Shown in pieces: positions 31,280 to 37,084 of a stretch of 64,000 nucleotides of DNA. Each line of letters opens with the position of its first letter. The stretch's first letter is position 1. The position numbers and the translations under genes are program-made. The notes below the pieces were generated by a model. It did no database searches and was not told where the DNA came from. It was given only the letters and a program-made list of their open reading frames with translations. Origin of the DNA: Eledone cirrhosa (lineage: Eukaryota); NCBI GenBank assembly GCA_964016885.1, contig OZ024747.1:38006001-38070000 (forward strand), written 5' to 3'.

Positions 31280-31814
31280 ACACACACACACACACACACA
31301 CACACACACACACACACACACACACACACACACACACACACATATATATATATATATATACTTATACAGGAAAAGAGTCAGGACCCCGAACTCGGATCTA
31401 GCTGTCGAAGTGGCCGGAGCTCAGCCGTTGGGGTCCTGACTCCTTTCCTATAACCCACTCTACTACCCTAAGTATTGAGTACTCTGGTGCGTTATGGCCC
31501 ACCTGGTATCTTACCACACCTTCTTTGTTACATACACACACACATATATATATATATATATATATATATATATTTATATATATATATAAACAATTAAGTT
31601 AAAAATGTACATCTACATATGCATACTGAAATACTAGTGTGTATATGAATACACACACGTATACATATGTAGGTGTACCAAGTCTTTCACTGGTCGCTTT
31701 ACAGTGAGCGGCCCAGCTATTCTGTATGTAAACACACAGACAAACCGGTTTTTAGAGTCATACTGGTTTTTCGGGGGAACACCTTCCCCCTATTCTACAG
31801 AAAGCCAGACAAGG

Positions 31815-31859
31815 AATATTGAACTAGTTTCGTTGTTGTTACAACTCATCAGCAATATT
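31815..31859 (-). ncRNA. Type I hammerhead ribozyme, family F
   Basis: AATATTG-CTGATGA-GTTG TAACAA CAAC-GAAA-CTAG-TT-CAATATT. Confidence 0.8.
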
Positions 31860-32410
31860 TACCTATCTACCGGCCTTTCTGGAGAATTGTAAAAGCACAT
31901 ATCGTTATATGCTTTTTCTATGAAAATTAGTAGTGGGCAGACTAATTTGCATAGAGTGTGAGTACGCACCGGTTCAGCGGAGACGATAAAAACAAATAAC
32001 GAAACGAAATTAAATTTCGTTTCGTTTGTAACTCACTAGTATGACTCTAAAAACCGGTTTGTCTGTGTGTTTACATACAGAATAGCTGGGCCGCTCACTG
32101 TAAAGCGACCAGTGAAAGACTTGGTACACCTACATATGTATACGTGTGTGTATTCATATACACACTAGTATTTCAGTATGCGTATGTAGATGTACATTTT
32201 TAACTTAATTGTTTAAGCGTCAGTCATACAAAAGTGAGTTACAAACGAAACGAAATTTAATTTCGTTTCGTTATTTGTTTTTATCGTCTCCGCTGAACCG
32301 GTGCGTACTCACACTCTATGCAAATTAGTCTGCCCACTACTAATTTTCATAGAAAAAGCGTATAACGATATGTGCTTTTACAATTCTCCAGAAAGGCCGG
32401 TAGATAGGTA

Positions 32411-32455
32411 AATATTGCTGATGAGTTGTAACAACAACGAAACTAGTTCAATATT
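32411..32455 (+). ncRNA. Type I hammerhead ribozyme, family F
   Basis: 7-bp stem I, perfect core CTGATGA/GAAA, 4-bp stem II, palindromic CTAG stem III, GUU triplet. Confidence 0.8.
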
Positions 32456-32878
32456 CCTTGTCTGGCTTTCTGTAGAATAGGGGGAAGGTGTTCCCCCGAA
32501 AAACCAGTATGACTCTAAAAACCGGTTTGTCTGTGTGTTTACATACAGAATAGCTGGGCCGCTCACTGTAAAGCGACCAGTGAAAGACTTGGTACACCTA
32601 CATATGTATACGTGTGTGTATTCATATACACACTAGTATTTCAGTATGCATATGTAGATGTACATTTTTAACTTAATTGTTTAAGCGTCAGTCATACAAA
32701 AGTGAGTTACAAACGAAACGAAATTTAATTTCGTTTCGTTATTTGTTTTTATCGTCTCCGCTGAACCGGTGCGTACTCACACTCTATGCAAATTAGTCTG
32801 CCCACTACTAATTTTCATAGAAAAAGCATATAACGATATGTGCTTTTACAATTCTCCAGAAAGGCCGGTAGATAGGTA

Positions 32879-32923
32879 AATATTGCTGATGAGTTGTAAC
32901 AACAACGAAACTAGTTCAATATT
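32879..32923 (+). ncRNA. Type I hammerhead ribozyme, family F
   Basis: Identical to 32411-32455, 468 bp downstream. Confidence 0.8.
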
Positions 32924-35900
32924 CCTTGTCTGGCTTTCTGTAGAATAGGGGGAAGGTGTTCCCCCGAAAAACCAGTATGACTCTAAAAACCGGTTTGTCT
33001 GTGTGTTTACATACAGAATAGCTGGGCCGCTCACTGTAAAGCGACCAGTGAAAGACTTGGTACACCTACATATGTATACGTGTGTGTATTCATATACACA
33101 CTAGTATTTCAGTATGCATATGTAGATGTACATTTTTAACTTAATTGTTTAAGCGTCAGTCATACAAAAGTGAGTTACAAACGAAACGAAATTTAATTTC
33201 GTTTCGTTATTTGTTTTTATATATATATATATATATATATATATATATATATATACATATATGTGTACATATACACACAAACACACACACACACTCTCAC
33301 GCATACACACTCTCTGACGCACACACACTGACATACACACACACAGACAGACACATATATATATTGCATTTTTGAAGATATATAAATTATCCAGACAAAA
33401 AAATATTTTTGCTTCATCCTGTAGAAGATAATGGCATATTGCCGTAACATGTTTTATAGCTTCTTTAAACTTACAAATTTCATACAATATTTCTCACACA
33501 GCCATTATGAATACTATCGGTGTTTTTAATTACTAGAAGAAATTTTGCAAGACAATGTTTATAGCCGTCTGGGTTGCTTCAGTCTATCGCTCTAGTTATA
33601 TTATCGACCTCGGCTGGTATTGAAATCTTTAAGATTCATTATTCACACGAGATGCCAATAACAATTTATCTGTAATATTGTTGTTGGTGGTTGTGGAAAG
33701 TTTCATTGCTGGCTGTATTTTACTTGATATTTCAGCCGTATATCCACAACACAAGGAACACCAAAAATAACGACTGTTGAGGTCGGGCGAGGTCGGTCGA
33801 GTCCATTTTATCCACCTTCGCAAAAAGCACCGATGAATACTACACGCATACTTTTAGATTGTCACTCAGCCTGCTAAAACTAAGTGGTGAATCGTCCTCA
33901 GGTTAGACCCCACTAATTACAATATGGGACAGGTTGGATAATAAATTAAGAATGCACATAAAACAAATGACAAGCTGGTCACAGTTTTAAGGCATTTGAA
34001 CATATCTCCTGATTAGAGTTAACCTGGGTCTAAACAATGATAATAATTGCTTGTAGAAATAAACTGGAGAATGGAGGGAGTACATGTTCAGGCTGTCATA
34101 TCGAAACCCCCAGGATTAACTTCTGCATGTCAGAGAGTGTAGTATGTTTCTTAACTAGGCTGTGGCAAGAAAAATAAGTTTGTCTATCACACCTATAGGT
34201 TCAGCTAATTGTTTGGCCTTGGAACACAAAAAGATTTGATTTAACCGTCTCAAACGTAAGAGTACTGGTTTTCCCATGTATGTCATGGTAATGCAGCACC
34301 TCGTTGGTGTTTATAAACTTGTATGCACCGAATTTGCTTCCTGAAAACGTTTTATAAGGTAACTTGGTATCATAGCCTGTTGTACTTATGATGGCGATGA
34401 TGATGATGACTATCATGATAAAACAAGCACAAGGCAAAGTAGATTTCTTAGGCGGGAAACGTCGTTTAGGTCGACTCAACTACTTGATTGGTACTTCATT
34501 GTAATCCCCTTCGAAAGAGGAAAGGCAAAATTGATTCCGGCAGAGTTTGAATTCAATGGCAGGAATAATAATAATGACACAGTTATTGGTAGAATTTTTT
34601 CGTGTAGCCCTGAGACAATATTGATAAAGCAGATCTTTGATCAAAGACATTCTAACCATGACAATTTTGACATTGTGTTTCTAGGACTGTGTTATGCATT
34701 GTCGATTTCCTATTTTTAAGATAGTTTGGTGTGATCTGAAGGAAATTTAGCTGCTATGTTTGTATATCGTAAGACCACGTAGAAGATCCGCCGTTGTCTT
34801 GAAAATGATGATGATGGTAACGGAGTTAATCTATTTGCATGTCAGGGGCAAGTGTTTTAATCACTGATAAAAGGTATCGGTCATGTGTGACAAATATCTG
34901 AATTTTCTGCTGACAGATTTAAATGTAATATATATGTAATATTTATGTGATATATATGTGTAATAATTATGTAATATTTAGTTAACTATGCATGCCATAA
35001 AATTGGCCTGAATTCTTTAAATGCTTTTAATGCTTTAGGGAGGTGAGAAATACAAGTGGTTGATATAATAATGTTGTTTCGAATATATTCATTGTTTATT
35101 CACAAAAACAATTGTTTATTCCATCAATCCCTGATTATATCATCATTTTTTCCTCGTTTCCCATTTCACCTTCCCACTCTGGATATTGGGTTGTCAACAC
35201 TGTTCCATGAGTTATCTTTCTATCTCTCGTTAACCCCTAGCTTCCAACGTGTATTAAAAAACTGTTTACCAGACAAAGGGTCCTAACGTATATATTCTAA
35301 GTACTATTTCAAACATTAAAAAAATTGCTTCCCAGGGTCACACTCAAAGTGTTAGTATTCTATTCTTATAACACCCACATTTTTAGCAACATCTGATTTT
35401 GTTTTGCTTTTCCTCATACAAGTGCAATTCAATTGCGTTCGAACGCGATAGCTGAACATTTGATAATTTAGCCCTTTAACATTGAACTATTATATCCTTT
35501 CTTTCTTTCTCTAATTCTGAAGAGTCGATATATACTAATCAGATATGTATACGGTATTATAGATATAAATCTATAGCAATTATAGTCTATCATGCTAAAT
35601 GTCTCCACAAACCTATTCATCTGTAGAATAATTATATCTTGTAATGAAAATATATAAAGCGTATTGCAGAATTATCTTTCAAGCTTATTAGGCAAATATA
35701 TATAACATGTATGCGCATCTGCCACTCGTTACCACTCTTTGTTTTTACTTCAACGTATATGTTGTATAAATGATCATAATATCTGTTTCTTTTCATCTAT
35801 TCATTCATCAGATTATAAACTCTACATATATGCATTATTATATTATAATATAAAATTAACCACTCACACGTGACAGATAGACTACTCTGGGTGTTTTCAA

Positions 35901-36454
35901 AATATTTAAATTCTACATTGAAGTAGCCATTGTTTTAACACCAATAGAGACTGTCTGCATTTTGAATCAATATAAATATATGCGAAATCAATTATAAAAC
36001 AGACACTATTACAACGAAAATATAGATACTATTAGAACGATAAATTATATAACTAAAAAACTAAAATGAGTCGATGTATCTACCACATAAAATTTAATGA
36101 TAAACAGATATACATACACACATACACACACACACACACACACACACATACCCATACACACACACATACACACACACACACACACACATATATATATATA
36201 TATATATATATATATATATATATATATATATATATATATATATATATATATATATATATATATATATATACACACACATTCACGGTCATCCTAACGTTCA
36301 TGACTATGATAACACTAGTCGATCGCTATAAATTGAGGAAATCTGGTAAAGTACTGCCGAAGAAAGAATCCTTCATGTCACCCTATCTCTTCCCCTTCTC
36401 CCCCCCTCTCTCTCTCTCTCTCTCTCTCTCTCTATATATATATATATATACATA

Positions 36455-37084
36455 TGTATACATGTACATATGTATACGTGTGTGTATTTATATGCATACT
36501 AGTATTTCAGTATACATATGTGGATGTACACTTTTAACTTAATTGTTTAAGCGTCAGTCATACAAAAGTGAGTTACAAACGAAACGAAATCTAATTTCGT
36601 TTCGTTATTTGTTTTTATCGTTTCCGCTGAACCGGTGCGTACTCACGCTCTATGCAAATTAGTCTGCCCACTACTAATTTTCATAGAAAAAGCATATAAC
36701 GATATGTGCTTTTACGATTCTCCAGAGAAGCCGGAAGATGGGTTATTTATTGCTGATGAGATGTAATAACATCGAAACTAGTCCAATATTCCTGTCTGGC
36801 TTTCTGGAGAATAGAGGAAAGGTGTTTCCTTGAAAACCCGTATGACTCTAAAAACCGGTTTGTCTGTTTGGTTACATACAGACTAGCTAGACACTCACAG
36901 TAAAGTGTCCAGTGAAAAACTCGGTACATGTACATATGTATACGTGTGTGTATTTATATGCATACTAGTATTTCAGTATACATATGTGGATGTACACTTT
37001 TAACTTAATTGTTTAAGCGTCAGTCATACAAAAGTGAGTTACAAACGAAACGAAATCTAATTTCGTTTCGTTATTTGTTTTTAT
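36455..37084 (+). mobile_element. Diverged family F copy, ~1.35 units of 466 bp
   Basis: Homologous to the 468-bp unit; same 3' end CGTTATTTGTTTTTAT followed by (AT)n. Confidence 0.9.
36748..36788 (+). ncRNA. Type I hammerhead ribozyme, family F variant
   Basis: TATTG-CTGATGA-GATG TAATAA CATC-GAAA-CTAG-TC-CAATA; compensatory stem II change vs GTTG/CAAC; canonical GUC triplet. Confidence 0.85.

Follow-up and report, generated by a model that had tools for sequence, protein, structure and literature searches.

How does a 468-bp repeat that encodes no protein, with one hammerhead ribozyme in every unit, come to lie as two opposed arms in a (TA)n tract? The question is raised by a locus in a 64,000-nt stretch of the Eledone cirrhosa genome (GCA_964016885.1, contig OZ024747.1, positions 38,006,001 to 38,070,000), which we call the window. 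On balance, we favour the reading that a non-coding hammerhead repeat, a retrozyme, inserts in (TA)n as two arms with fixed ends, and that a predicted circular RNA of sense (ribozyme) polarity would be reverse-transcribed from both sides of the break.

An earlier note on this DNA had described a non-coding 468-bp unit with one hammerhead each, in 2.5 direct copies and a 0.96-unit inverted arm, and this description holds. Tandem Repeats Finder reports a direct tandem of period 468 (2.5 copies, 99%) at 32038-33220, and the inverted arm, 31587-32037 (451 nt, 0.96 unit), equals 32701-33151 with zero mismatches. The diverged copy was also correctly described: 36549-37014 is 90.4% identical to the 468-bp unit with a period of 466, and it keeps the core while carrying stem II GATG/CATC and a GUC cleavage site. 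Both direct arms do stop at TTGTTTTTA followed by (TA)n, 303 nt past the cleavage site. Absent from the earlier note is a second fixed end, end B at 31587, where the inverted arm stops; in the unit it precedes the direct-arm end (end A) by 68 nt.

Hammerhead cores of the form CTGATGA-GTTG/CAAC-GAAA-C-TA-G-TT begin at 32418, 32886 and 31852 (minus strand). The ribozyme is of type I, with a stem I of 7 bp, a stem II of 5 bp and a stem III of only 2 bp closed by the palindrome ACUAGU; a hammerhead with so short a stem III works as a dimer and cleaves poorly, according to PMC4209133. Across 38 distinct ribozyme variants from all fetched loci, 88% of cells are paired and 7 of 14 pairs have changed on both sides, and sliding the stem partners destroys the pairing. 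The core columns of this alignment were preset by the search pattern and kinship among the sequences inflates the shuffle test, so the stems alone count as covariation support; in the stems, the covariation claimed earlier is borne out. The monomer, taken from cleavage site to cleavage site, folds at -160 kcal/mol (z = -10.3; 0 of 100 shuffles equal it), and the superfamily core pattern has 39,384 genome matches against 0 for a reversed control. Together, the control, the fold and the stem pairing argue that the hammerhead is not a chance occurrence. The proposed Rfam check for hammerheads came back empty, as no match to any Rfam family in the window passed the gathering threshold. At least two consecutive tandem units each hold a complete type I hammerhead, an arrangement that departs from plant long terminal repeat (LTR) retrozymes, whose LTRs bear type III hammerheads and enclose a unique core. 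By every sequence criterion, the element is an animal non-LTR retrozyme, a known kind.

The genome comprises 3.0 Gb, and a DNA search of it, in which 40 of 790 candidates were scored, found near-identical dispersed loci among those 40. Exact 31-mers of the subfamily have 354 genome matches, the first 100 of which represent 46 loci, so that we extrapolate to roughly 160 loci. The 466-468-bp family has 9,305 hammerhead cores by exact pattern. The census called for in the earlier note shows dispersed, multicopy elements, from monomers up to multimers, at the subfamily, family and superfamily levels. The sister families, with units of about 424-500 bp, retain the ribozyme, an upstream motif and a tail hairpin; two of them are represented in the window. 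We analysed 74 loci (cited by L numbers), comprising the window, 39 best matches and 34 loci picked by position on two contigs. Mean arm identity is 99.0%, and the 468-bp family is, on sequence grounds, young and recently active.

The insertion footprint at these loci follows a simple rule. Among 126 arms, 62 end at A (unit position 465-469), 58 at B (389-401, mostly 400 or 395) and 6 elsewhere. The (TA)n targeting proposed earlier is confirmed, with 111 of the 120 A or B ends running into TA repeats. Two-armed loci pair one end with the other: 46 of the 51 are A+B, one is B+B, none is A+A and four have one odd end (p = 3e-13), and the position-picked set alone gives 18 A+B of 22. Several ‘single’ arms are accompanied by a remnant of the opposite end that is too short to count. 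Arm lengths range from 0.15 to 7 laps, arms of up to 7 units stay in phase, and the head-to-head joins often fall at short homologies or hairpins. Duplications of 12-14 nt, including 2-4 nt common to the element ends, flank the insertions at L031, L050, L067, L186 and L201; a duplication can be defined only where the TA tract is imperfect, and not in pure TA. The earlier note had envisaged repeated copying of one RNA unit from ‘a fixed internal priming site’. Repeated copying is supported by the multi-lap arms and by lap-shared variants, and end A is indeed fixed, but the single site becomes two, 68 nt apart, one per arm.

At L042:4077-7730, two arms on the same strand lie 2.2 kb apart, both starting from unit position 187, and one ends at A and the other at B. 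At L132-L133 (G000:C1:5738324-5752446), a 31-unit arm ending at B is joined by a short arm ending at A. In this array 19 of 30 units are distinct and the units show a period-3 higher-order pattern, which indicates that long arrays also grow after insertion; we rejected a single 14-kb rolling-circle product as unproven for it.

If the template were a cleaved linear monomer, reverse transcriptase (RT) would stop at the cleavage site. The arms cross the cleavage bond 158 times with no indel at positions 160-171, and only 5 of 126 5' ends fall within 10 nt of the bond (5.7 expected). A circular template is favoured because the site shows neither pile-up nor scar. The variants carry a second signature. 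Of 56 variants present in every lap of a locus, 32 are A>G and 6 T>C on the ribozyme strand (p = 1e-5), and the excess persists at 16 against 4 (p = 0.005) without L197 and five lineage sites. Private variants are symmetric (A>G 24 against T>C 23 of 258; also 43 against 41), which argues against a strand bias arising at the DNA level. All-lap variants that span both arms number 42, in 19 loci. L197 bears 11 non-lineage A>G changes that are found in both arms and return after one period within an arm; their sites include the ribozyme core A9 and the upstream element. The 5' neighbour of edited sites is U or A in 18 of 21 cases (p = 0.046). Since lap-shared variants are A>G-biased while private ones are balanced, all laps and both arms were likely copied from one RNA of ribozyme polarity that had undergone adenosine-to-inosine (A-to-I) editing, and from the A>G change and the neighbour bias we infer ADAR as the editor. 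The 468-nt circular RNA and its self-cleavage are predictions, and a DNA circle formed after one lap may leave the same pattern as an edited RNA circle.

The two arms could also come from a single priming on the same circular sense template, if the complementary DNA (cDNA) primed itself at a hairpin and the second arm were a DNA copy of the first, with B (or A) as a fixed resolution site and later central deletions causing the asymmetry. We consider this possible but unlikely, and several results speak for it and against two independent primings. Both arms start in the same phase at 15 of 46 junctions (6.0 expected), at hairpins or palindromes, and such junctions are commoner in the youngest set (12 of 28) than in the position-picked set (3 of 18). 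Lengths that exclude fold-back are rarer than after shuffling (10 against 16.2; p = 0.017), and in L059 and L064 a shared variant is confined to the distal lap and the opposite arm, which is what fold-back would give. Self-priming at a palindrome has moreover been proposed for Penelope-like elements (PLEs), albeit on an antisense template (PMC3846280). However, the palindromes and hairpins in question (positions 197, 238, 309, 375 and 428) are compatible with either model, as two same-sense cDNAs could also anneal there. In 10 of 46 loci, the lengths are impossible for plain fold-back and would require an extra asymmetric deletion; the B arm is the longer in 17 of 46, arm lengths are uncorrelated (rho -0.007), and the variant patterns of L052 and L180 are not mirror images, L052 having subfamily sequence in its B arm that is absent from its A arm. 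Also to be set against the favoured reading are a pooled substitution test on the first 40 loci, which showed no A>G excess (19 against 13), a lap-stratified test on the same best-match set, which gave only 8 against 4 (p = 0.18), and the period-3 pattern of the 31-unit array.

A template without a covalent RNA circle is quite improbable in our view, whether it be an uncleaved multimer of a homogeneous array, a cleaved monomer held by stem I with RT jumping, or DNA-level laps after a one-copy insertion. The poor cleavage of short-stem-III hammerheads (PMC4209133), the failure of 8 of 9 Xenopus dimers to cleave and the position of end A at a T5 run would fit it. So would the alternating variants of L040, L185 and L180 and the period-3 array, which suit multimers or unequal crossing-over; where they occur (also in L052), alternating variants may reflect dimeric templates or later unequal crossing-over. 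Nonetheless, rare A>G changes, one of them core-inactivating, appear in every lap and both arms of L197 and L192, which independent editing of multimer units would not yield; the 158 crossings have left no indel, end B lies 9-14 nt beyond its T5, and end A of the sister families is away from T runs. That the unit is simply the pseudo-LTR of a longer coding PLE, with the arrays as truncated insertions of it, we think very improbable. Xenopus retrozymes do match pseudo-LTRs, and the systematic analysis covered 74 of the estimated 160 loci of the subfamily, within a wider family of several thousand loci. Yet the closest PLE coding match is 1,090 nt from any of the 74 loci and only 6 of 74 have one anywhere in their flanks; the unit has no stop-free frame longer than 84 aa, with a best PLE-protein match no better than E 0.37, and arms can run on in phase for up to 7 units. 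The earlier note had named such a terminal repeat as what would overturn its proposal, and none was found at the 74 loci. Local array growth, which we do observe, would be expected of a satellite that had spread through recombination at the DNA level and carried the ribozyme as a passenger, but dispersed 99%-identical insertions, fixed ends, duplications and strand-specific A>G make this explanation scarcely credible, and the strand bias already contradicts it.

On the favoured reading, the tandem units would be transcribed, possibly from a U6-type element whose motif is present within each unit. A 468-nt monomer would be released by two hammerheads, which likely act together as a dimer by way of the ACUAGU palindrome, and would then be ligated, as in known retrozymes. 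Some of these RNAs would undergo A-to-I editing, in keeping with the strand-specific A>G, putatively by ADAR. A PLE nuclease of the GIY-YIG type would make a staggered cut in (TA)n, matching the 12-14-nt duplications at five loci. One DNA 3' end would prime at site A and the other at B, 68 nt upstream, which the A+B rule suggests; each RT would travel 0.15 to 7 laps on the same molecule, and the cDNAs would join head to head, consistent with the lengths and junctions. In L1 twin priming, both DNA ends prime on one RNA and produce an inversion joined at microhomology, each cDNA copying its own part of a linear RNA. The retrozyme arms, in contrast, cover the same sequence, in several laps, from two fixed sites. 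A fuller version, to which we give only tentative credence, is a self-promoting circular RNA replicon with its own U6-type promoter and ribozyme, in which two PLE RTs, primed by both 3' overhangs of one (TA)n cut, chase each other round one sense circle. If this were true, each insertion would be a DNA snapshot of a single edited RNA molecule, and the A+B rule would expose PLE integration (sense template, twin priming), coding elements included.

The promoter part of this proposal starts from host genes. The element TATG(C/G)(A/T)AAT(T/G)AG lies at -76 to -78 in three distinct U6 upstream types, RNase MRP and U6atac (one mismatch), a count that leaves out 11 further U6 matches without the element (retrocopy-like) and 3 further U6atac matches. 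A TATA box follows 46-50 nt after it, and the element is absent from 12 U1/U2 upstream regions and from RNase P. In the window, 6 of 6 matches fall inside retrozyme units (0.20 expected). The element, with a TATA-like box 42-43 nt later, is kept in three retrozyme families and predicts a start just before stem I; in the first direct unit, this box is altered by A>G at 32360. Some features speak against such a promoter: the spacing in the unit is 4-5 bp shorter than in the host genes and does not match theirs, RNA polymerase III (Pol III) would have to read through T5-T7 runs in the unit, and the element doubles as a hairpin arm whose partner strand is more variable. Inspection of the unit by eye showed no counterpart of a distal motif that the host has near -250. 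We conclude that a U6-type promoter inside each unit possibly drives transcription. The predicted start was rejected as a 5' boundary (6 of 126 5' ends, the same as uniform), and so was the idea of the ends as Pol III terminators, which fits only end A of the 468-bp family. At L241, an RNase P RNA gene has a U1/U2-type TCAGT box upstream and lacks the U6-type element, hinting that it is transcribed by Pol II. Several U6 and U6atac retrocopies (L145, L146, L151 and L239) have (TA)n immediately before their first base, as though a TA-targeting enzyme had inserted them too.

The footprint also bears on which enzymes are used. PLEs are marked by an inverted copy and a 30-40-bp tail at one side, as described in PMC8557442 and PMC3846280. 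A coding PLE (RT and GIY-YIG, with many intact 784-aa copies) pairs a long end with a short one in the window, at L169-L172 and at L193; L182 has short ends only. The retrozyme shows the head-to-head inverted copy with a one-end tail in 46 of 51 two-armed loci, and also the microsatellite target with a short duplication. As coding and known PLEs share the inverted copy and one-sided tail, the retrozyme is likely a non-autonomous PLE. The nearby PLE, whose enzymes the retrozyme was earlier suggested to use, is a candidate partner: the two-ended TA footprint is common to both, but the 784-aa family has no hammerhead by our search pattern and no sequence likeness to the unit. Nor was any likeness to the unit found in the 1.5-kb flanks of 30 of 150 listed GIY-YIG loci, which counts against our reading; matches in L170 and L231 are separate retrozyme insertions. 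The PLE at 12062-20055 of the window and at L163 is very active, with a 4.7-kb unit of two frames, in which a 455-aa frame without a Pfam match precedes the 784-aa RT-GIY-YIG frame; the latter has CxxxxCxxC ahead of the nuclease, as in Neptune and Nematis. At L175:4426-6072, a retrozyme arm runs with no TA between into a 248-nt 3' piece of this PLE, 99% identical and ending at the PLE long end; the fusion arose either through a template switch, in which case it would identify the partner, or through a deletion that joined two neighbours. Three short PLE 3' fragments share their PLE start position (L040:3341-3587, L058:4951-5147 and L175:5826-6072), which suggests that they form a mini-element of their own, some 240 nt long.

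Retrozymes as a class are already known; the A+B rule, the editing scars and the U6-type box are apparent additions. For metazoan non-LTR retrozymes, RNA circles have been shown, and reverse transcription of circular RNA into tandem cDNA has been proposed (Cervera and de la Pena 2020, PMC7229834). Our element resembles them in its non-coding tandem, one type I hammerhead per unit, self-paired monomer, low GC, thousands of copies and coexisting PLEs; it differs in a unit of 468 nt against about 170-400 nt, and its circle is predicted from DNA alone. Inverted arms, fixed ends, a target site and an internal promoter are not among the features we found in the text of that article. Like Li, Clavereau and Pollet 2026 (bioRxiv 10.64898/2026.07.22.740005), we view retrozymes as non-autonomous PLE derivatives, and 468 bp lies within their 51-972 bp range. 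As far as their text goes, they link unit and pseudo-LTR by homology and favour local tandem growth, whereas our evidence comes from the insertion footprint and no parent pseudo-LTR turned up. Endonuclease-bearing (EN+) PLEs (Neptune, Nematis and Naiad; PMC8557442, PMC3846280) share partial tandems, a head-to-head inverted 5'-truncated copy, a one-end tail and a (TA)n bias, and are described with 9-10-bp duplications and non-autonomous head-to-tail derivatives such as MRC1 in Chlamydomonas. The retrozyme, unlike them, has no open reading frame and a tail of 68-73 nt rather than 30-40, and its A>G scars point to a sense template, whereas the proposal in PMC3846280 was self-priming on an antisense one. 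Newt satellite 2 and a schistosome hammerhead satellite have an internal promoter of small nuclear RNA type (Pol II) or of Pol III, as cited in PMC2220036; the predicted promoter here matches the host U6/U6atac/MRP box instead of the U1/U2 box.

In the open papers that we searched, a scope that excludes subscription papers, Dfam, Repbase and retrozyme-paper supplements, we found neither this family nor any two-ended retrozyme insertion described, and within the same limits no mention of the A+B rule, sense-strand editing scars or U6-type box. Retrozyme mobility and the origin of PLE inverted arms and one-sided tails are stated to be open questions in PMC7229834, PMC8557442 and bioRxiv 10.64898/2026.07.22.740005. 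In the present family, the 468-nt substrate is 99% identical and recently active, both ends are mapped, the template strand carries a marker and the genome also holds intact candidate enzymes; this makes twin priming, fold-back, and circle versus line directly distinguishable.

Table 1. Parts of the retrozyme locus and related elements, in window positions.
Feature	Position	Strand	Remarks
Left (TA)n target tract	31544..31587	none	
Inverted arm	31587..32046	-	about 460 nt; 3' end is fixed end B, unit position 400, ...TTAATTGTTTA then TATA
Inverted-arm type I hammerhead	31815..31859	-	
Head-to-head junction	32035..32046		12-nt overlap at the unit's internal inverted repeat GTATGAC/GTCATAC
Direct arm	32035..33219	+	2.53 units; 3' end is fixed end A, unit position 468, ...TTGTTTTTA then TATA
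TATGCAAATTAG	32317..32328	+	matches the upstream element of host U6/U6atac/MRP; forms the 5' arm of a predicted hairpin as well
Further TATGCAAATTAG-type elements	32785, 31942 (minus), 36651		
TATA-like box	32828..32833	+	42-43 nt after upstream element (host 46-50)
Type I hammerhead, first direct	32411..32455	+	stem III 2 bp, palindromic ACUAGU; predicted GUU cleavage after 32448
Second direct hammerhead	32879..32923	+	predicted cleavage after 32916
Predicted 468-nt monomer	32449-32916	+	between both predicted cleavage sites
68-nt tail between ends B and A	33152..33219	+	contains 13-bp hairpin 33180-33208
Right (TA)n target tract	33218..33257	none	
Diverged 466-bp subfamily insertion	36459..37084	+	1.34 units, end A, (AT)n flanks; hammerhead 36746-36790 (GUC)
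Distant relative, about 424-bp family	41822..42212	+	GUA hammerhead at 41903; shares the upstream element and has a homologous end A
Distant relative, head-to-head pair in (TA)n	43925..44795		two different ends; hammerhead 44288 (minus)
Coding RT and GIY-YIG PLE, head-to-head pair in (TA)n	12062..20055		ends about 31-35 nt apart; candidate partner

Other mobile sequences share the window. Another hammerhead-like family occurs in short palindromes (TTTTAT-CTGATGA...GAAA-TATATA-ATA) at 26451-26774, 29281-29536, 20706 (minus) and 37212 (minus), and also at L164. TA tracts with many short head-to-head palindromes, several of them unequal-ended, lie at 1550-1781, 7166-7364, 7557-7685, 9177-9590, 22280-22737 and 29878-30055, and are probably other PLE-mobilised elements. 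The sequences at 2265-3887, 7880-8783, 54581-55588 and 61173-62657 comprise fragments of a Helitron-like helicase, another GIY-YIG PLE, which is broken, and an RT of the long interspersed nuclear element type.

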